Below are positions 30,518 through 63,518 of a stretch of DNA of 64,000 bases, piece by piece. The translations under genes were made by a program, and so were the position numbers. Under the pieces are notes generated by a model that saw only the letters and a list, made by a program, of their open reading frames with translations, searched no databases and was not told the origin of the DNA. Origin of the DNA: a virus (lineage: Duplodnaviria > Heunggongvirae > Uroviricota > Caudoviricetes); IMG/VR virus record IMGVR_UViG_3300015615_000629, positions 192,001-256,000 of that record. One strand, written 5' to 3'. Position 1 is the stretch's first letter. Each line of letters starts with the position of its first letter.

Positions 30518-31127
30518 GAAGTTAATTATAAGCCGAGAAACCATTCGACGTAAATTAATAACAAAAATAAACCGTCAAATGGGAAGACGATTAAGTTTTG
30601 GTCCGTCTGCGACTTCTGGTTGCGATTGTTGTAATTGTTGCGACAGTGATCCTTGTAGTTGTTGTTCGGGCAATACTCCAAGAACAATTACTGTGACAAT
30701 AACAGGCGTAACTGCAACAGATGGGTGTGCAGATTGTGCTAGTTTTAATACAACATATACATTATTTCAAACAGAACCAGACGACATAGATGAAGGCATT
30801 CCTTGCCGTAAAGGTTATAATGCATGTTTTTATGTTGGAGACACAGGCATAAGTACCGACTGTCCTGGGGGCTTAATCTTTGACTTCGAAGCAACAAGAA
30901 CATTCTTGGAAATAACATGTATCGGAGATGTTGTGACGGTTAATTTTTACATTTGTGGAGAATTACCGCAAATTACAAGTCCAGTAACTATACAATACAG
31001 CAATTCTACAACTACGCCATTTGATTGTTGCAGTCCTTTTTCAGGACTAACTACATCGTTCACCACAGGCAGCCTAATCGGATGCGATTTTGCACCAAGC
31101 TCGGCAACAGTAAATTTCTCCTGTTAA
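30510..31127 (+). CDS. Cys/Thr-rich protein, possibly virion-associated
   Basis: basic N-terminus, then CDCCNCCDSDPCSCC. Confidence 0.6.
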   Translation: MSRKLIISRETIRRKLITKINRQMGRRLSFGPSATSGCDCCNCCDSDPCSCCSGNTPRTITVTITGVTATDGCADCASFNTTYTLFQTEPDDIDEGIPCRKGYNACFYVGDTGISTDCPGGLIFDFEATRTFLEITCIGDVVTVNFYICGELPQITSPVTIQYSNSTTTPFDCCSPFSGLTTSFTTGSLIGCDFAPSSATVNFSC

Positions 31128-35637: not shown

Positions 35638-35648
35638 TTTGGTACAAT

Positions 35649-35858
35649 TTGGAAATGATTAAAAACAATTGTGTATGCACTATGGTTCGCTTACCAAACG
35701 AACAAACCTTCTTTACATTCAGAAGGAACTACAGAAAGTTAATCGAATTCGCCAACTTATTCAATGCCGAATTGTCCATTGTTAAGGTAAAAGAAGCAGA
35801 AGTTCTTACTCTTCAAGAATTATCATCTGTGATAAGCGAAAACAAATTGTGTAGTTAA
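35649..35858 (+). CDS. possible small protein
   Basis: 69 aa ORF filling an otherwise empty gap. Confidence 0.35.
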   Translation: MEMIKNNCVCTMVRLPNEQTFFTFRRNYRKLIEFANLFNAELSIVKVKEAEVLTLQELSSVISENKLCS

Positions 35859-35894
35859 GTTCGAATTCACTTTTTGTAGCGTTATTCCAGTCCA

Positions 35895-52939: not shown

Positions 52940-53548
52940 TCATTTCTTGACAATTCCAGTGCCATACCTAGTAGGAACTATAACTACATCTCTGCTTTTA
53001 GTTTTACAGAAATCCGTAAATATCTGATTTCCCACAGACGACTTAACATGGTTAATTACAATATAACCATCCTCGGCAATATATTGCCAGATCAAATCTA
53101 GTCTCTGCCTTTCCTTGTCATATTTGTCTCCTAAGTTATTAAATAGACACAAATCCCACTTTTTCTCGCCCAAAATGGAATTAAATTGAGCATCCAAGTA
53201 ACCGCCAACATACAAATCAAACTTCTCTTTATAGACGGTTTTAATGTTTTTTCTGCCAAATATGTCTGGATAGTTCTCTTGCATCTCTTGAAATGCTAAG
53301 AAATTCTTGACACTTTTACATTGTTTCAGGAAACATGTGCTCAATAATCCCAAGTCAAAACCAATTTCCAATAGATTTGTAGGAGTTAAGTATTTCCCAA
53401 GATGAAAATAGAAAGGTGCATGGCGATTGTCTTTGTATTCAAGACTAGCCCTGCTATCGGGATTAGGTATGTTAAGATTGTCTAATAACATCCCAGATTT
53501 GATGAATTCGTTGGAAATATCTTTTTTTAAATTGTCTAGGAAATACAT
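52940..53548 (-). CDS. class I SAM methyltransferase (Methyltransf_24-like, divergent)
   Basis: LLEIGFDLGLLS, DGYIVI, YGTGIV. Confidence 0.6.
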   Translation of the reverse strand: MYFLDNLKKDISNEFIKSGMLLDNLNIPNPDSRASLEYKDNRHAPFYFHLGKYLTPTNLLEIGFDLGLLSTCFLKQCKSVKNFLAFQEMQENYPDIFGRKNIKTVYKEKFDLYVGGYLDAQFNSILGEKKWDLCLFNNLGDKYDKERQRLDLIWQYIAEDGYIVINHVKSSVGNQIFTDFCKTKSRDVVIVPTRYGTGIVKK

Positions 53549-53563
53549 ATTTTTTGAAGATAT

Positions 53564-53606
53564 AAAATAAAAAAGGAGGTTTAAAACACCAAGTTTTAAC
53601 CTCCTT
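53564..53606 (-). terminator. intrinsic terminator closing the ncRNA
   Basis: AAGGAGGTTAAAAC-ttggt-GTTTTAAACCTCCTT then T-run on minus. Confidence 0.8.
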
Positions 53607-53760
53607 GTCTCAGACTCGGCAATCTGCCATTTACATTGAATTGTGGCTCAAACCATCCAATTCCCATATTTGCAATTTCTTGCGGATAAATGATGCCTTC
53701 TTATATGGACTTCCGGCAACACTTCAACACCACAAGTCGAAGAACAATGGCGTCCAAGAC
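53607..53760 (-). ncRNA. rod-shaped structured ncRNA, 6S-like
   Basis: nested helices GUCUUGGAC/GUCUGAGAC, GCCAUU/AAUGGC, UUGUGGU/GCCACAA, CCGG/UUGG, UCCAUAU/AUAUGGG, GCAA-GAAA-UUGC; upstream TAAATA; downstream terminator. Confidence 0.7.
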
Positions 53761-53764
53761 ACTA

Positions 53765-54250
53765 CTATTTAGTGTCTAATTCGTCAATATTTAAATCTTC
53801 TCTATTGTGATATAACTCAATATTAAACTTCTCCATTTCCTTTCTTAACGTATAAGAACGTGAAATGGCATTCTGATAACCTTTATCCCAAGCCCTCATG
53901 TGATTCTTTACTTTATTTACCAACTTGTCCAACTCCAACATTTTGCCTCTTGCCTGTTGAACCGCTGGATCAACTCTGGCTCGTGATTCCGCAAACTTAT
54001 CAGAACCACCTTCTTCCTTAGATGAAATAAACTTTGAATCAAATGTGTCTTTATACGCAAACTCGGCTTCTTTGTAAGCGTGCTCTAAATCAGCCAGTAA
54101 AGCACCAAAATAGTCATACCACAGATGCATCTCTTGTTGAAATCTGCCTAACGTAGCCTCATCAAAAAAGATACGATTGCGGTCTAAAACTACTTCTCTG
54201 CCGTCTATTGTAAAACTTTCCTTAGAAAGGATTTCGTCTATATCACTCAT
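53765..54250 (-). CDS. uvsY: UvsY-like recombination mediator
   Basis: helical protein, GGSDKFAESRARVDP, next to the helicase. Confidence 0.6.
   Translation of the reverse strand: MSDIDEILSKESFTIDGREVVLDRNRIFFDEATLGRFQQEMHLWYDYFGALLADLEHAYKEAEFAYKDTFDSKFISSKEEGGSDKFAESRARVDPAVQQARGKMLELDKLVNKVKNHMRAWDKGYQNAISRSYTLRKEMEKFNIELYHNREDLNIDELDTK
53766..53771 (-). promoter_or_regulatory. late-type promoter TAAATA for the ncRNA
   Basis: 5 nt before the closing stem, same spacing as at leaderless genes. Confidence 0.6.
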
Positions 54251-55790
54251 TATCTTCCTTTGCTGCATCTAATAACTTTTTTCTGTCTTTCTCTTTAATC
54301 TTGTCTAGACTTCCTTCCATAAGGAGTTTAGCTGTGTCTGTAGTAGCTCGTTCTTTCTTATAATGTAAATACTTGGTTAATCTAGTAGAATATTCCTCCT
54401 CTGAAATTTCCATAAATTTCAACTTCCTATAATCAACAGATGCAAAAAATAGAAATCTACTTTTTCCAGCACGATGTTTAATTACAAATATTCTTGCTAA
54501 TCCACATGCTTTTTCATTATCATTCTGGTTAATCGACCAACAGCCATCTAAGGGTTTAATCTGCCCATAAGCATCACCTAGATTCTGATCATCTATAACT
54601 CCAATTTCCTGAGCATTTCTACCAGAACGATTAGGTTGTAAAGCACTTAAGCCACAAAATTGCTCTTCTACTGCCAGCCCTCTTAAGTCTCTTAAAATAC
54701 GGAATCGAGACTCCCAAACAGCAATATCAGGAGCATCTAACATTTCTCCTACGTAGTCAATAATAACCAAATCCGGTTTGAATCCACGCAAGGTTAATTG
54801 CGAATAATAGGCACGAAACATATTAATGTCCATCGTGCCGCCAGGAAATTGCTTAATTACCAACAATCTCTTATCTTCAAACTCAGAAACATAATCATTA
54901 ATTGCTTGTTCTACGACGAATTGGTTGTCCAACAACATAGAAGGCTCAATGTTGTATTGATTGGTAGGATCAACCAATTCAGCATCAAAACGCTCGGCAA
55001 GAGAATCTTGGTCTAATTCCAAGGTAACATATAATACCTTCTTGCCACGGTTTAAATTGGCAATAGCGGCACATTTGAGCATCAAAGACTTACCAGTTCC
55101 AGATAAACCTATCCAACAGCCAATTTCGCCTCTGGTTAAACCGCCCATTTGGAGTGAGTTATTGACAGATGGGAACACCATCGTAAAGATGTCGCCCGTC
55201 TCCATTAAGGCTTTTCTTCGCTCGTATCGCTCAGAAACATCCTGAAAATATTCTAAACCTATATCGAAATTGCGATCAACACGCATTGCCTGCTGTAACC
55301 GATCATTCACCTTCGCCCAAACAGCATCATCTGTAGAACCATTTATTAATCTGGCACATTCGAGAAAAGCCGTTCGTAACTCTTGCTTCTTGGCAAAGGT
55401 AGTTATTTTATCGAGCAAATAATCCCTGGTGCCTACCCCAGGAACATAATACTCATAACAAGCACTTATTTCAGTAAAATACCTAAGCCTTTCTTCAAGA
55501 CTCTTGCTAGATAACTTTTCCTGAATTTCCTGCTTTAGTTGAACCTTATCAGGTAAATTCCCGTACTTTTCAAAGAACTTGAAAAGTATTTCAGATGTTA
55601 ATTTATGAATTTCATTTTTGAAATATTTCGGTTTTATAAGTCCATCACTTTGAATGATAAACATCCTGTCTCTCATTAACAAACCTATTATTTCCCTCTG
55701 TAGGTCTGTTTCAAACTCATAAAACTTATCAGTCTCGTCACTTGGTTGTAACGAATTCAAAATATCTTGTTCATCTTTGCTTAGAGTCAT
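54243..55790 (-). CDS. DnaB/gp41-like replicative helicase
   Basis: GLSGTGKS, VLYVTLE, IKQFP, PDLVIIDY, LRGLAVE, K.R.G. Confidence 0.9.
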   Translation of the reverse strand: MTLSKDEQDILNSLQPSDETDKFYEFETDLQREIIGLLMRDRMFIIQSDGLIKPKYFKNEIHKLTSEILFKFFEKYGNLPDKVQLKQEIQEKLSSKSLEERLRYFTEISACYEYYVPGVGTRDYLLDKITTFAKKQELRTAFLECARLINGSTDDAVWAKVNDRLQQAMRVDRNFDIGLEYFQDVSERYERRKALMETGDIFTMVFPSVNNSLQMGGLTRGEIGCWIGLSGTGKSLMLKCAAIANLNRGKKVLYVTLELDQDSLAERFDAELVDPTNQYNIEPSMLLDNQFVVEQAINDYVSEFEDKRLLVIKQFPGGTMDINMFRAYYSQLTLRGFKPDLVIIDYVGEMLDAPDIAVWESRFRILRDLRGLAVEEQFCGLSALQPNRSGRNAQEIGVIDDQNLGDAYGQIKPLDGCWSINQNDNEKACGLARIFVIKHRAGKSRFLFFASVDYRKLKFMEISEEEYSTRLTKYLHYKKERATTDTAKLLMEGSLDKIKEKDRKKLLDAAKEDNE

Positions 55791-55999
55791 GAATTATCCG
55801 AATCTCTTTCAAATTGCTCCCGAACGAATTTTAAACATTCTTGCACTCTTTTCTGGCGTTCTCGAAGCATTATTCTTTGTGCCTCTGCTTCAGGCTCAGC
55901 ATACCAGAATAATAATCCTTGTTTACCAAAATCTACAATGTCTCCAGGCTGTATAACTATGTCGTTGTCATTGTCATCAAACTTTATTCTTATTTTCAT
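55787..55999 (-). CDS. hypothetical protein
   Basis: 70 aa, ATGA overlaps on both sides. Confidence 0.6.
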   Translation of the reverse strand: MKIRIKFDDNDNDIVIQPGDIVDFGKQGLLFWYAEPEAEAQRIMLRERQKRVQECLKFVREQFERDSDNS

Positions 56000-56553
56000 A
56001 ATTCCGCCAAATAATCGTATTCAGAAAGGCTTACCATGCCGTGTCTTACAGACTTTTCCCTGGTTACTTTCTTTCCAAGGGCTTTTTGAGCATTCCAAAC
56101 TATTGTTTTACAATAAGTGTTGAATTTATTATCAATCTTTAACTTGGCGTCCTTCTCAGGTCTGTTTTCTTTAGGAATAAACCGCTTGGTTAATCTTTCC
56201 AGCAAATTCTCTTGATGCACGCCAAATTTCTGCTTGTTTGCTCCATGCCTTGTCTTGTTTGCCCAAAGCTCTTTCAAATCTTTTAAAAGCATCAAGCAAA
56301 ACTTATCTTTGATGTGTTTTCCACATAAATGCAAACACCTTTCAAGATAAACTTGTCTCTTATGATAAGAACATGCTCTCATTAACGCAATGCGTAAATC
56401 TTGAGTAATATCCTCTTCTTCTAACATGCTGTTGTTATTGTTGTTACGTTTAATCAACTGCCACGAAGAGAAGTGACACAAATTACCATATTTTTTCTCT
56501 AAAATCACGAATTCCTCTGTAGAAACAGGGAAATCTTTAAAAACATCTTGCAT
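55996..56553 (-). CDS. truncated sigma70-family factor (region 2 only; gp55-like late sigma candidate)
   Basis: KYGNLCHFSSWQL, EEDITQDLRIALMRA, KFNTYCKTIVWN, MVSL; no region 4 HTH. Confidence 0.65.
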   Translation of the reverse strand: MQDVFKDFPVSTEEFVILEKKYGNLCHFSSWQLIKRNNNNNSMLEEEDITQDLRIALMRACSYHKRQVYLERCLHLCGKHIKDKFCLMLLKDLKELWANKTRHGANKQKFGVHQENLLERLTKRFIPKENRPEKDAKLKIDNKFNTYCKTIVWNAQKALGKKVTREKSVRHGMVSLSEYDYLAEL

Positions 56554-56562
56554 TATATCCTT

Positions 56563-57453
56563 TCAGCCATAGTAAAGCCTTTGCCTCGCTACATTACAAA
56601 ATTCCTCGGATTTTTCGATACAAATAAAGTTACGATTAATTCTTTTACAGGCTACACCAGTAGTCCCACTACCAGCAAAACCATCCAATACCAAGCCTTC
56701 CTCTGGACACAGACACGAAACAACGTGTTCCAATACAGATAAAGGCTTTTGCGAAGGATGAACCATTACTTCATTTTTATCACTCACAACATAAGTGTCG
56801 TGCTTGTATTCATAATCTTTTCTGTTTGAGTCCTTTGCGGGCTCTCTAGTAAGCAATATGTCAAAGGTGTCGTCTAATTTCAAAATTTCTTTCAACGGCT
56901 TGTAAAATCTCGGCGTTGGCAAGCACCAAGCAGGATCACCAACTCTTGTCCATTTCATGACGAGTCTTGAATCGCAATTTAATTTCTTGGCTAATTCGCT
57001 TTTTGACAAACCAGATTTAATTAAATATTCACTTAAATAAGCGACTAATTCCGAATGAAATTCAGTAGGTTGTTTAGGTAGGTATTTTTGTCCGATAACT
57101 ATGGCTTGAGTTCTGGGAAGCCAGCCTAAGTATGGACGGGCATTGCCTTTAGGTAGGTACATCGATAAAGTTCGACGATACATGAATCCATTAGAACGTA
57201 AAGTATCTATACATACATCTAAGTTTCTCATCGTCCAAAAAATAGCAATATGGCCATTTCTTTTAATTTTAGGCTCAATCAGACGAAGAAAATTAACCAA
57301 AAGAGACTCGGCTTCATAAATATTACCGTCCCCATCATAACACATTCCCTCCCCATATGGCGGGTCAATAACAACGGCATCTAAACCTTCATCTGGTATT
57401 TCTTTAACTATTTCTAAACAATCACCTTGGGTAATTTCATTTATCATTATCAT
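56563..57453 (-). CDS. beta-class DNA adenine methyltransferase with inserted XRE-type HTH
   Basis: IDPPY, HPSQKP, LDGFAGSGTT; insert GLSKSELAKKLNCDSRLVMKW. Confidence 0.85.
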   Translation of the reverse strand: MIMINEITQGDCLEIVKEIPDEGLDAVVIDPPYGEGMCYDGDGNIYEAESLLVNFLRLIEPKIKRNGHIAIFWTMRNLDVCIDTLRSNGFMYRRTLSMYLPKGNARPYLGWLPRTQAIVIGQKYLPKQPTEFHSELVAYLSEYLIKSGLSKSELAKKLNCDSRLVMKWTRVGDPAWCLPTPRFYKPLKEILKLDDTFDILLTREPAKDSNRKDYEYKHDTYVVSDKNEVMVHPSQKPLSVLEHVVSCLCPEEGLVLDGFAGSGTTGVACKRINRNFICIEKSEEFCNVARQRLYYG

Positions 57454-60230
57454 TTCCCAAAGTTATCGGCCCATATTGTATAATCTAAACCATCTACGAC
57501 TCCATCGCCGTTGAAATCTCCACTTAAATTTTTCTTTAAAGTGGTCTTCCCAAAATTATCGGCCCATATTGTATAATCTAAACCATCTATAATTCCGTCT
57601 AAGTTGGCATCCCCTTTTGGAGTTCCCATGTTTGAAAAATTACCCCAAATTAAAAATGAAGTCTTATACGTCTGTCCGCCGAAAGTGTAATTTCTCGTAA
57701 AGATATTTAATCCAGGCACCAACTTAACATTTTCCGTCCAAGTAGATATCACACCCGGCTCATAATATGTAAGTTTAGCACGATAAGTCAAAGTATAATT
57801 AGAAACAGTGCTAATCATCGAACCCATGTTCCAGGCGGTAGGTAATTGAGACGAAATAGGAGCTACAGAACCAATAATACCCGTCATTTTTGTTGTGACA
57901 GGAGGTAAAATGTTACCAAAAGAAACTCCATATTTGTCATAAGCGACCTGATTTGTAATTCCAAGAATAGGTATTATAAAATTGGCATTTTGAGAGTCAT
58001 AATATATTTGAAAATCCTGACCTGTTTTATTGTAGTCGTAAACTCTTACATCTGTTTTATTTCTAAAATATCTGATCAATCCAATCATATCATTAGTGTT
58101 TATCAACTGTGCTAAATGATTTGGAGATTGAGTTAAAAAATCTTGCAAATATATGTTTTGATGAGGAACATTAACACTACTCAAGGTTCCAAACTTAGTG
58201 CTAACTATATTTACCTGAACACCAGGAACAGGAGCCGTAGGAATGTAAATATCTCTAAAATTATTCAAAGTGCTGTCTATAACATCAGCCCCACCCGAGC
58301 CAAGAAAAACTCCTACATCAAATCCTCGAATTTCTGTATTTACCACCCTGATAACTCCGGTAGCACCACCAGGATTCCCATCCACACCTAAACTTCTTGT
58401 ATAATTAGGCTCACTTTGTCTTTTGGGAAGTTTGTTAACACTTACGCCCAAATCATACGGACCAATTATTGTAGAATTTGACAATGTTTGATTAAGATTT
58501 CTTTCAACTAACAACGGAGAAGAATAATAAAACAAAAATCCTACGTCTTGCAATCCTCTAATTTTTACATTAAATCGATCCGCAGACCAGTTGCCCGCAT
58601 TGCTGTAATAACTAATGAACCCAGTACCTAAACTAACATCTGCAAAATTATCATGAAAACTGACAATCCGCTGGCTTGAAGGATTAAATGGTAAGTAATT
58701 TAAAACATTAGATTGAACGCCAGTTATGTAAGATAAATCTTGACCATTTACTTCGTGTAATTTCAAGCCTTCTTTGCCAAAAAGCCAATAACTAAACCCT
58801 TCACGCCTATATGAACCCGCTGCTACGTTTCCATATACATTCAACAAAGGAGATGCAAACCAATATCCAAAACCGCCATGTCCAAAACTATTGTTTAATC
58901 TCTCTTGTGGCAATGCATTTACGATAGTTACATCATTTACTCCAGAACCACCATTTGTGCCTATTACCAAATTATAAGATATTATGCCAGTTTCTGTCCC
59001 ATCTTCCGATGCTATTCCAGAACCACCAACAGACGCCACAACATTTTTTGTTATTGTGCCATATGTCTGGTGTAAAGCGATTCCCCATTTTAAATTATTG
59101 CCCTTGATGCCGCCATCTATGGCATTCCCTTCAAATATAAATGCATTTTCTAAATGATGTGCATGTAAAGCATATCGACCACGTTGATTAGTTCCTATGC
59201 TAATTAAATTTCCTGCTAAATCAAACTTAGTATCATTAACTGCTTTAGCCTCTGTTCTGCCCATATTAACGAAAGCAGCATATTTAACAGAAACTTCCGC
59301 ACTACCAGCAAACAAAGCATGTCCTTGAGAACCGGCTGCGGAACTAAATGTAACATTTCTAGTTAAATTACCAATATATCCTTCTTTATCATGTTCATAA
59401 GTTAATGGGGAATTTAACGTTACCGTATTATCATTTATTTCAGTTATAAATCGTCTCTCATCTTGTCTTTTATATGTCTGAGTAGTAGAGCCGACCTGAG
59501 TATCGGCAAAAAATAATTCATCTCCAACTGCCCAGTTTGTAATATCTTTGACGGATATTGTATTAACACCAACAACGGCTTTAGAATTTAAATAACTAAA
59601 TGTTGATGCTAATTCCGCTCCTTCTATATGAACATGCCCACCAATAGCCACCAATCCTATAGAACTTTGCGATGGATCTTCCGTTAAATTAAGCACACCA
59701 TCAAAAACAACATTAGTTTTAACATTTCTATTGTGATTTTCTATTTTTAAATGACCACCATCATAAACCATGATAGTGCCTAAATGAAGTTCTGTATTTT
59801 TGGTTGAATCAAATTCTAGCTCGCCCTTAACTCCTATTGTCTTTACAAAACTATAATCACTATCGTAAATTACCGTAGAGCCAACAGGGATCAAAACAAC
59901 ACTATTTTGGTCTAATTGATTCTCCCAATCAGACCAATTTGAAATTCCAAGCGGAGCAACAAAAGTAGGATTAGCTGCCGCGTCCGTGATCCAATCAGTC
60001 CCTGTGTCGGCGGGATGTTGCACGCCAAATCGAGGAAGTTGTCCAGTAGAAGAATCAGGAACAAAATAAATAAAATCAGAATGATCATGTTGAACTGTTA
60101 ATTGATCGTGTTGTGCCGTTGTAAACAAAACCGCATCTGGATTTTGAAGTGGAGCAACCATTGCAGATGCAGACATACATATCTTTTTTTCTAATCTCTC
60201 TATGGACAAGTTTTTTATATTTTTTCTCAT
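57450..60230 (-). CDS. G8-domain beta-helix protein with Planctomycete-type N-terminal motif and dockerin-like C-terminus
   Basis: LSIERLEKKICMSA; G8-like region, NLTRNV, MGR, GRYALHAHH; two GD.N.DG..DGLDYTIWADNFGK units. Confidence 0.8.
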   Translation of the reverse strand: MRKNIKNLSIERLEKKICMSASAMVAPLQNPDAVLFTTAQHDQLTVQHDHSDFIYFVPDSSTGQLPRFGVQHPADTGTDWITDAAANPTFVAPLGISNWSDWENQLDQNSVVLIPVGSTVIYDSDYSFVKTIGVKGELEFDSTKNTELHLGTIMVYDGGHLKIENHNRNVKTNVVFDGVLNLTEDPSQSSIGLVAIGGHVHIEGAELASTFSYLNSKAVVGVNTISVKDITNWAVGDELFFADTQVGSTTQTYKRQDERRFITEINDNTVTLNSPLTYEHDKEGYIGNLTRNVTFSSAAGSQGHALFAGSAEVSVKYAAFVNMGRTEAKAVNDTKFDLAGNLISIGTNQRGRYALHAHHLENAFIFEGNAIDGGIKGNNLKWGIALHQTYGTITKNVVASVGGSGIASEDGTETGIISYNLVIGTNGGSGVNDVTIVNALPQERLNNSFGHGGFGYWFASPLLNVYGNVAAGSYRREGFSYWLFGKEGLKLHEVNGQDLSYITGVQSNVLNYLPFNPSSQRIVSFHDNFADVSLGTGFISYYSNAGNWSADRFNVKIRGLQDVGFLFYYSSPLLVERNLNQTLSNSTIIGPYDLGVSVNKLPKRQSEPNYTRSLGVDGNPGGATGVIRVVNTEIRGFDVGVFLGSGGADVIDSTLNNFRDIYIPTAPVPGVQVNIVSTKFGTLSSVNVPHQNIYLQDFLTQSPNHLAQLINTNDMIGLIRYFRNKTDVRVYDYNKTGQDFQIYYDSQNANFIIPILGITNQVAYDKYGVSFGNILPPVTTKMTGIIGSVAPISSQLPTAWNMGSMISTVSNYTLTYRAKLTYYEPGVISTWTENVKLVPGLNIFTRNYTFGGQTYKTSFLIWGNFSNMGTPKGDANLDGIIDGLDYTIWADNFGKTTLKKNLSGDFNGDGVVDGLDYTIWADNFGK
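57454..57589. repeat. 43-bp direct repeat pair encoding the dockerin-like repeats
   Basis: 57454-57496 and 57547-57589 differ at one base. Confidence 0.85.
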
Positions 60231-60237
60231 TTTATCC

Positions 60238-61443
60238 TCAATAATTAATAAACAACTTTAAACCGTCATGAAACTCTTCATTACATTCCAATATCTTCTG
60301 GATACTTCTCTTAACGTGTCTTTCCCTGGAGTCTACCCCCAGAAGATATCCATCGTGGATGTGACCAACAATGTCACAACCCTTGGGGAGATTATCGTAT
60401 AATTTAATTAATTTGTAAAGACATATTATCGCCGCTGGAGCCTGAATTACAAAATTTCTACTTTTATACTCTTTTCCATCCTCAAACTGCCTAACCCTCC
60501 CAAAATAATCCGTATTTCCAGAATTCTTCACAAAATCAAATGCAGCAGGAAATAACTTCTTTATATTGTTCGATAACCTAGTAGCTGACTCTACAGAGAC
60601 ATTTAATCGCTCTGCAACCGACTTAATCCCCTGCCCATACACCATCGGTAAAAAGATGGACTTACACTTCTCTCTATGAACAGCTGTCGGCTCAACCCCT
60701 GTCGAATACTTCCATATACTCGAAAATACGTCCTGTCCGGAATCTAGAATTTTCCCAAGATTCTTGTCACCCGACAGCCATTGTAATACACAAACTTCAT
60801 GGCTTTTGTAGTCAAATAAACAAAACTCTCGCTCATAAGAGGCTGGCCCTAAAGCCGCTTTATCTTCTGAGGAAAGTGTATGCGGATTAAAAGAATACTT
60901 AAAAGACTTATGGCACTTCAATCGCCCATTCGTCTGCCCTTCTATATCATAACAAGAATAAACCTGTTTTTTAAGGACTTGATTGGTGACTCCCAACGTT
61001 TCAATAGTGGGAATGACCCTTGTTATCAAGGGAAGATGAACCTCCTGATATATTTTGTTTGCCTTTCCAAGGGCTTTAAGACGCTCAAATGCCTCTCTAT
61101 AATTACTCGGACGTACTTTGCTGATTCCGGAAAAACCTTCTAAGACTTTGATGTCAAACAGTTTATTGGGAGAATTAGGAAGGATTCCAGTCCTAGATTT
61201 GATAAAAGACAGGAGAGATTTGAAATTCCAAGAGAGAACAGGTCTGTCTAAAGAAAATAGACAATCTAATGCCCCGATTAGATTGTCTATTGGACCTGTT
61301 AATGGAAATTCTACCTTAACATCCCTGTCTTCTAATACTAAGACAGCAGGCTTGCTAAGATCAGTGAAATCAGGGACTTCCGGCTCACAATACACATACA
61401 AATTCTTGTCATAAAGACAAGTTAGAGCCGCAAAAAAGTCCAT
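60238..61443 (-). CDS. compact family A DNA polymerase
   Basis: TNGRL, motif A FDYKSHEV, motif B REKCK...MVYG, motif C IHDG. Confidence 0.8.
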   Translation of the reverse strand: MDFFAALTCLYDKNLYVYCEPEVPDFTDLSKPAVLVLEDRDVKVEFPLTGPIDNLIGALDCLFSLDRPVLSWNFKSLLSFIKSRTGILPNSPNKLFDIKVLEGFSGISKVRPSNYREAFERLKALGKANKIYQEVHLPLITRVIPTIETLGVTNQVLKKQVYSCYDIEGQTNGRLKCHKSFKYSFNPHTLSSEDKAALGPASYEREFCLFDYKSHEVCVLQWLSGDKNLGKILDSGQDVFSSIWKYSTGVEPTAVHREKCKSIFLPMVYGQGIKSVAERLNVSVESATRLSNNIKKLFPAAFDFVKNSGNTDYFGRVRQFEDGKEYKSRNFVIQAPAAIICLYKLIKLYDNLPKGCDIVGHIHDGYLLGVDSRERHVKRSIQKILECNEEFHDGLKLFINY

Positions 61444-62693: not shown

Positions 62694-63518
62694 TTAATAA
62701 TTGGTTATAATTAGTTCCTTACCAGTCTTCTTCACTTTTTGGGAACTTCCACAATATGCCCATTCTTCCTCGTGAAAATTGAAATCCTTATAAAGTTCCC
62801 TTATAAATGGGTCATCATTATAACTTAAACAAATCTTATGATTAGATAATCTTATATTATTTCTTAGTTCGACATGATCATCTTCGTCGAAACAAAACTG
62901 GTACAACTTGTCGGTCTTAATCGTGTTGCTTTTGATGTAATAAGGCGGATCACAATAAATTAGAACATCTTCACCATAGGCTAGCAGCAAAGTATTGTAA
63001 TCACCGTGAGTAATTGTTACATCTTTAACCAACTCGGCTGCTTCTTCTAAAACTCCAGAAGTCGTTATGTTCCAACCACTTGGATTGGAATAGTACAATC
63101 TACTTGGGACTGAATAATTAACCCTGCCCGCCCAAACGGTTCGATTAATAAAGTAATACGATAAAGCCGAATCGTTTCTATTTAAAACCAGTTTATCAAA
63201 TTCGCCTTTTAACCTAGCATTATAGAGTTCTTTACCTCTTACAGTTTTAGCCTTCGGTTCATCGTCTTTTTCTGGCTCTATAGCTCGGCATTTGGTTATG
63301 AAGTCATTTGGACGGTATTTTAATGCTCTGTAAACTGATATTAGGTCTTGATTTACGTCATTTATCCAACGTGATTTCTCTTTGGAAATGTCGAAGAAGA
63401 TGCCGCCGCCACCAACAAAAGGCTCACGATATTCTTTAAAATCTGGAAATTTAGAAAGTATCTTTTGTTTGACGTTTTTTTTAGTTTTGCCACCAGGATA
63501 TCTAAAAATACTTTTAAT
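62694..63518 (-). CDS. Dam-family DNA adenine methyltransferase, apparent ATT start
   Basis: frame open from ATT 63518: (I/M)KSIFRYPGGK...EPFVGGG...IND...INR...DPPY...ELIITNY; track reports only the last 134 aa. Confidence 0.8.
   Translation of the reverse strand: MKSIFRYPGGKTKKNVKQKILSKFPDFKEYREPFVGGGGIFFDISKEKSRWINDVNQDLISVYRALKYRPNDFITKCRAIEPEKDDEPKAKTVRGKELYNARLKGEFDKLVLNRNDSALSYYFINRTVWAGRVNYSVPSRLYYSNPSGWNITTSGVLEEAAELVKDVTITHGDYNTLLLAYGEDVLIYCDPPYYIKSNTIKTDKLYQFCFDEDDHVELRNNIRLSNHKICLSYNDDPFIRELYKDFNFHEEEWAYCGSSQKVKKTGKELIITNY

Follow-up and report, generated by a model that had tools for sequence, protein, structure and literature searches.

The minus strand of the virus record IMGVR_UViG_3300015615_000629 is predicted to encode a compact, structured noncoding RNA (ncRNA) in a 216-bp gap at positions 53549-53764 of the window, by which we mean the stretch of 64,000 nucleotides (positions 192001-256000) analyzed from this complete 572-kb record with terminal repeats. 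Judged on covariation among homologues, the conserved fold is a four-way junction of helices P1 to P4 with a loop-bulge pseudoknot and a core of 156 nt (Table 1). The gap sits within the replication module of the phage, in which a sigma-like gene, a helicase gene, the UvsY-like gene, the gap, the methyltransferase gene, two unknown genes, gp32, and UvsX follow one another, and is flanked by the uvsY-like and methyltransferase open reading frames (ORFs). An earlier note on this DNA had proposed a late-promoter-driven, terminator-bounded structured ncRNA gene here, and conserved signals and a covarying fold in homologues bear this out; its drawing of the RNA as a single rod and its reading of that rod as a 6S-like decoy of sigma70 did not hold. 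The gap has the size given in the note, but it is not the largest noncoding gap of the window, since by ORF cover those at 35638-35894 (257 bp) and 63099-63513 (415 bp) exceed it.

Direct protein scans with single queries retrieved almost no relatives, and alignments were required. With alignments of the helicase, the UvsY-like protein, and the methyltransferase as queries, more than 300 syntenic loci were obtained, in many of which TANATA and a terminator, spaced about 200 nt from each other, enclose the gap. A 23-sequence alignment built from sequence alone gave the covariance model R1, which found 29 further sequences, and model R2 enlarged the set to about 57 distinct homologues. The homologues occur once per genome (both models also find a single copy in the phage's own genome), always on the strand of the module and nearly always between the UvsY-like and methyltransferase genes, and all of them come from one uncultured megaphage clade. 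Their mean pairwise identity is 43%, the RNA of the window is at most 50% identical to any other, and no alignment column is conserved above 96%.

The pseudoknot is a 6-bp pairing of the apical loop of P2 with a bulge of P3. Neither R1 nor R2 contains it, which rules out that the alignment was fitted to this pairing. Its cells are paired to 92% in the sequence-only alignment and to 95% in the 52-sequence alignment, and in both alignments, all six pairs show changes on both sides. Among the held-out homologues (n = 29), the full set of six pairs is formed in 79%, compared to 16% when loops and bulges are crossed. Covariation was tested with sequence weighting, average product correction (APC), and a null simulated on the tree, with the 95% maximum of the null as the bar; nested pairs lean toward the model in this test, whereas pseudoknot pairs do not. 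Every one of the top 24 APC-corrected column pairs is a proposed pair, and 21 of them lie above the bar. Four of the six pseudoknot pairs exceed the tree-based null, and no unproposed column pair does. The loop-bulge match is kept even in a 130-nt variant without the GA hairpin.

The 10-bp closing stem described in the note was found again as P1. The P3 arm is 94.5% paired and shows the strongest covariation; in the GAU of P3b, the A and the U, together with the partner A, are conserved to 92-96%, and the U.G pair is present in 42 of 52 sequences. Both the alignment and the support are weaker for P2a, P3a, and P4: P2a is shortened or missing in some homologues, and P4 is not column-aligned and is excluded from the covariation figures. 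For the UCUUC of the linker, the homologue alignments gave no consistent pairing partner. We also considered whether the linker, through its UC, might form a 2-bp contact with the P3b GA bulge, but this contact showed no covariation.

Table 1. Predicted RNA elements and neighboring genes, in window coordinates
Feature	Position	Strand	Evidence or remark
Structured ncRNA core, 156 nt, predicted four-way junction with pseudoknot	53606..53761	-	models R1/R2, covariation
P1, 5' strand, pairs with 53615-53606	53752..53761	-	90% of cells paired; 8/9 pairs change on both sides
P1, 3' strand	53606..53615	-	covariation (52-sequence alignment)
J1/2 linker, ends in conserved (R)UCUUC (53743-53739)	53739..53751	-	U 96%, C 92%, U 85%
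P2 arm: variable basal P2a, asymmetric internal loop, P2b, apical loop L2	53679..53736	-	P2b among top covarying pairs
Pseudoknot strand in loop L2, CCAUAU	53703..53708	-	pairs with 53669-53664
Pseudoknot strand in 5' bulge of P3, AUAUGG	53664..53669	-	32 distinct bulge sequences
P3 arm: P3a, pseudoknot bulge, P3b with GA bulge (53657-53656), apical stem U-A, G-C, N-N, U.G	53631..53675	-	
P4 hairpin, GGCA-GAU-UGCC	53618..53628	-	short hairpin here in most homologues, length and sequence variable
Late-type promoter hexamer TAAATA (family consensus TA[A/T/G]ATA)	53766..53771	-	conserved in homologues
Intrinsic terminator, 13-bp stem and U tract	53564..53605	-	median -16.3 kcal/mol in 45 homologues
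UvsY-like gene, upstream of gap	53765..54268	-	TM 0.67 versus UvsY cluster
O-methyltransferase-fold gene, downstream of gap	52940..53548	-	Foldseek matches (E 1e-9): TrmR, class I O-methyltransferases
Sigma region-2-only protein (gp55-like), presumed promoter reader	55996..56553	-	structural matches

Folding gave a z score of -3.3 against shuffles with the terminator included and of about -2.0 without it, and therefore, single-sequence folding was unable to settle the fold. In place of the single rod of about 155 nt, the minimum free energy (MFE) and centroid structures are both branched, and the rod, when forced and refined, reaches -38.8 kcal/mol compared to -43.6 to -44.1 kcal/mol for the branched fold, i.e., it is about 5 kcal/mol worse. 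The helices GCCAUU/AAUGGC and UUGUGG/CCACAA and the GAAA hairpin assigned to it pair in 16-59% of 22 homologues per column, which is chance level. Covariation shows neither a rod nor a central bubble, and the MFE structure is a simple rod in only 1 of 57 homologues. One helix of the rod, UCCAUAU/AUAUGG, does pair and covary, but its placement was wrong: it is the pairing of L2 with the P3 bulge. The GGCA-GAU-UGCC hairpin, formerly taken as an alternative state in a conformational switch, is the conserved P4, and a switch is unsupported. Modeling of the syntenic relatives thus upheld a conserved family by covariation and replaced the rod with a pseudoknotted junction.

6S RNA is a rod in which a closing stem and an internal stem flank one central bubble (PMC8876501). 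Neither the genome nor the homologues matched the corresponding Rfam model, RF00013, with the threshold relaxed to E ≤ 10. In the probable host order (Pirellulales, see below), the same model detects 6S RNA in 11 of 41 genomes; these RNAs are 215-224 nt long, four of six fold as simple rods, and R2 does not match them. Hence, the RNA fails 6S membership on structure and on model match, and the idea of a 6S-like decoy is unsupported, since the rod architecture that carried it is wrong. The Pirellulales 6S RNAs themselves (L352-L357) mostly score below the Rfam gathering score and have an internal GUGUAUAGCC ... GGAUCACAC motif in common.

The transcription signals were placed correctly in the note. 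TAAATA is found just before the stem (53771-53766, 4 nt ahead of it), and an intrinsic terminator of about -15 to -16.5 kcal/mol follows immediately behind, which an automated terminator scan of the window did not pick up. The assignment to the minus strand also stands, with strand, promoter, and terminator common to all homologues; by count, TANATA occurs at most 30 nt upstream in 51/57 homologues, with usually 2-5 nt between it and P1, and at least 45 of 57 have a terminator behind the RNA. Within this phage genome, 47% of the gapped genes in the structural region, the major capsid gene among them, have the hexamer upstream, compared to 17% elsewhere (p = 1.7e-8). The region-2-only sigma factor announced at a distance of 2.2 kb corresponds to a 185-residue sigma-like protein, whose best structural matches are to sigma domain 2 with middling Z scores of 7.4-7.7 (root mean square deviation of 2.4-3.7 over 71-80 residues); Foldseek by itself did not detect the sigma fold. 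From the conserved promoter and terminator, the enrichment of the hexamer, and the sigma-like protein, we infer that the RNA is transcribed late and on its own, as a molecule of about 190-195 nt that runs from the first base of P1 to the intrinsic terminator.

Two further observations concern these signals. Besides the region-2-only sigma factor, three ORFs of the genome score above the cut-off for sigma70 region 4 (G000 331505-331660, 143866-143988, and 287965-288042). A perfect 8-bp inverted repeat (53757-53777, -9.0 kcal/mol) surrounds the promoter hexamer, with similar hairpins in L060, L102, and L141; as a conserved feature, it was rejected, since own pairings (-3.4 kcal/mol) were not clearly above chance compared to crossed ones (-2.9 kcal/mol, p about 0.05).

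Within the clade, the RNA is scattered over the entire helicase tree, on which at least 15 changes are forced. In one of the sister loci L218 and L198, the whole gap has been cleanly lost, and a complete 511-kb relative that keeps its portal and capsid genes has neither a model match nor a gap of 120 nt in the interval. Therefore, the RNA is probably ancestral and dispensable, notwithstanding diverged copies, such as that of L016, which escape the model. A blastn search against cultured phages returned chance matches of terminator size only, and LR756511 has the helicase but no match to the RNA. Some contigs of the clade were binned into unrelated bacterial or archaeal metagenome-assembled genomes (L321, L322, L324, L325, and L327), two of them with the RNA. 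In phages without a model match, the same slot before the methyltransferase gene is taken by different noncoding elements, bounded by promoter and terminator (L027:10504-10790, L028:5400-5593, and L188:9802-9942).

In our model, the late-type promoter would start the transcript at P1, and the intrinsic terminator would end it. P2 would bend back at its internal loop, resulting in a compact and rigid RNA that could display the UCUUC linker and the hairpin with the GA bulge and the U.G pair as a surface for protein recognition. Acting in trans through its shape, the RNA would then titrate a nucleic-acid-binding protein late in infection, either as a decoy or as a ligand; the most likely target would be a host protein, i.e., a defense nuclease or a transcription or translation factor, and the RNA would be an accessory rather than an essential component. 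This late, accessory, shape-based decoy or ligand, more likely for a host protein than for one of the phage, is the reading we tentatively prefer. Shape is put before sequence because the mean identity is so low and no column exceeds 96%; a stand-alone gene is assumed because the RNA has its own promoter and terminator; and accessory status is assumed because of the at least 15 forced changes, the L218/L198 loss, and the absence from the complete 511-kb genome.

Three points weigh against this reading. The covariation fits a kiss within one molecule and between copies alike. A search with R2 in 141 sampled Planctomycetota genomes, which was run without a positive control, found no host counterpart that the RNA might mimic. 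Finally, the co-occurrence test had no more than three positive genomes and two informative negative ones; G021 was left out of the negative genomes because the block of methyltransferase, gp32, and UvsX genes is missing from it, probably for want of complete sequence at that place. The outcome of this test counts for the reading: in six large genome records, no phage gene tracked the RNA convincingly, with 31 genes fitting loosely compared to 13 for the reverse pattern. A bolder version of our proposal, which we consider rather unlikely, is that the RNA represents a new class of trans-acting phage RNAs, a pseudoknot-locked or multimer-forming shape mimic that disables a host machine, such as RNA polymerase, the ribosome, or a defense nuclease, late in infection by a mechanism unrelated to 6S RNA, prohead RNA (pRNA), or riboswitches.

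The loop-bulge pairing might instead connect copies of the RNA, as in the pRNA of phi29, and build a multimer for packaging or assembly. A junction scaffold of low sequence conservation that carries two complementary loops changing in concert is the pattern of pRNA (PMC4201828), and late expression would suit such a role. The RNA has been lost repeatedly, however, and is absent from the complete genome that keeps its portal and capsid genes; it lies in the replication module, far from the head genes (469-480 kb), its junction is four-way and not three-way, and there was no match to Phage_pRNA in Rfam. T4-type motors are not known to need RNA, and overall, we regard self-association as improbable.

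The chances of a polymerase decoy, which would bind the host sigma70 holoenzyme or core late and shift transcription to the phage sigma factor by a non-6S structure, are poorer still. The late promoter, a size near that of 6S RNA, and the nearby region-2-only sigma factor speak for it, and polymerase-binding RNAs other than 6S exist, e.g., Ms1 (PMC9130861). Against it stand the missing rod and central bubble, the silence of RF00013, the failure of R2 to match the 6S RNAs of the host order, and the retention of the sigma gene in phages that have lost the RNA.

Just as doubtful is a riboswitch-like cis element or metabolite aptamer that controls read-through into the gene of an S-adenosylmethionine (SAM)-dependent methyltransferase. 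A pseudoknotted junction with P1 as its closing stem and a terminator behind it would fit, and a gene with the O-methyltransferase fold is next in half of the loci (29/57). The remaining loci continue with other genes, in some cases encoded on the opposite strand, and a second promoter is frequent among the loci. Furthermore, there was no antiterminator: the median gain of the 5' arm of the terminator from upstream pairing was -0.8 kcal/mol compared to -1.0 kcal/mol in shuffles, and no upstream pairing in the homologues came within 3 kcal of the terminator. The lack of an antiterminator, together with a downstream gene that is not always the same, tends to argue against a riboswitch and for a trans-acting RNA; few bases are invariant, and no riboswitch of Rfam matched. 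Directly upstream of the methyltransferase start, relatives have a second conserved hairpin (L018:2778-2845, L024:3531-3590, L033:9306-9365, L039:10170-10230, L098:2898-2960, and about 12 more) with a covarying outer stem, an internal CAAGU ... GCG(A/U)UAG motif, and, in many cases, a U tract and a separate TATATA promoter. It is probably a separate cis-regulatory RNA motif and is absent at the corresponding place in the window.

Least probable is a ribozyme or a primer or origin RNA of the replication module: the compact tertiary fold and the fixed place among the helicase, UvsY, gp32, and UvsX genes would agree with it, and T4 origins are promoter-primed, but both ends are already set by promoter and terminator, no known ribozyme core is present, and an origin does not go well with transcription from a late promoter or with repeated loss.

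The phage is T4-like, judged on its capsid and sheath genes. The uvsY neighbor named in the note is UvsY-like by structure match, and its product has no Pfam match. A planctomycete host, with Pirellulales as the probable order, is hinted at, not proven, by the relatives of one neighboring gene, the best named of which are in Pirellulales. At window positions 57450-60230 (minus strand), a 926-residue G8-domain protein is encoded that has a planctomycete-style N terminus and dockerin-like C-terminal repeats; its best named relatives, with 44% identity, are in Pirellulales, which hints at the host. The adjacent region, 60238-61443 (minus strand), encodes a short family A DNA polymerase (401 residues), in a T4-like phage, and the place of this gene beside the sigma-like gene is conserved across the clade. 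In the genome, 40 tRNAs were called; ARAGORN reports tRNAs with CUA and UCA anticodons, possible suppressors, at G000 30802-30894 and 286239-286310. Many relatives have a Gp23-like second gene after the methyltransferase gene (L004:10415-11524), and in the phage's own genome, a short Gp23-like ORF adjoins the portal gene (G000 476469-476933).

The fold adds a well-supported, uncatalogued structure to the few known phage ncRNAs, one that a deep clade of megaphages has preserved at an identity of 43%. Since the family is small, with defined ends and natural minimal variants, its structure and partner are testable in vitro without culturing the phage. If our preferred reading holds, an RNA decoy of host machinery or defense would be a new phage countermeasure; if the kiss is intermolecular, the RNA would be a rare natural example of self-assembly.

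Rfam, searched at both the gathering and E-value thresholds, gave nothing meaningful for the window or for 27 loci homologous to it, and in the literature, we found neither a phage 6S mimic nor a description of this motif. Y RNA/YrlA, for which a Ro60 partner and a tRNA-like domain would be expected, was ruled out, as the complete genome has no TROVE (Ro60) gene and the locus no ARAGORN or Rfam call. With 6S RNA (RF00013), the RNA shares the size class, a stand-alone gene, an end-to-end closing stem, and conservation of structure rather than sequence, but it has a pseudoknotted four-way junction where 6S RNA has a rod and a central bubble, and the 6S model does not match; the 6S RNAs of the probable host are longer rods and unrelated by model. 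The pRNA of the phi29 family (RF00044) is likewise phage encoded and of similar length and has two complementary, covarying loops on a junction scaffold. It is, however, a three-way junction and an essential motor part in all members, whereas the RNA described here has a four-way junction and a 6-bp loop-to-bulge pairing, belongs to a T4-like megaphage genome, is apparently dispensable, is unlinked to head genes, and has no Rfam match. The SAM-I and lysine riboswitch aptamers have in common with it a multiway junction closed by P1, a long P2 with a loop pseudoknot or kiss, and a terminator behind; they differ from it in that its partner is a P3 bulge, invariant bases are few, an expression platform is missing, the downstream gene is variable, and Rfam gives no match. 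Measured against Rfam and the papers found, the RNA counts in our view as a new family; in kind, it belongs with the structured ncRNAs that phages are already known to carry and that have no assigned function. Among these are GOLLD, ROOL, and the 10,006 unnamed viral candidates of PMC10690425, which are, like it, phage-borne and intricately folded; the RNA of the window has no Rfam match and is much smaller.
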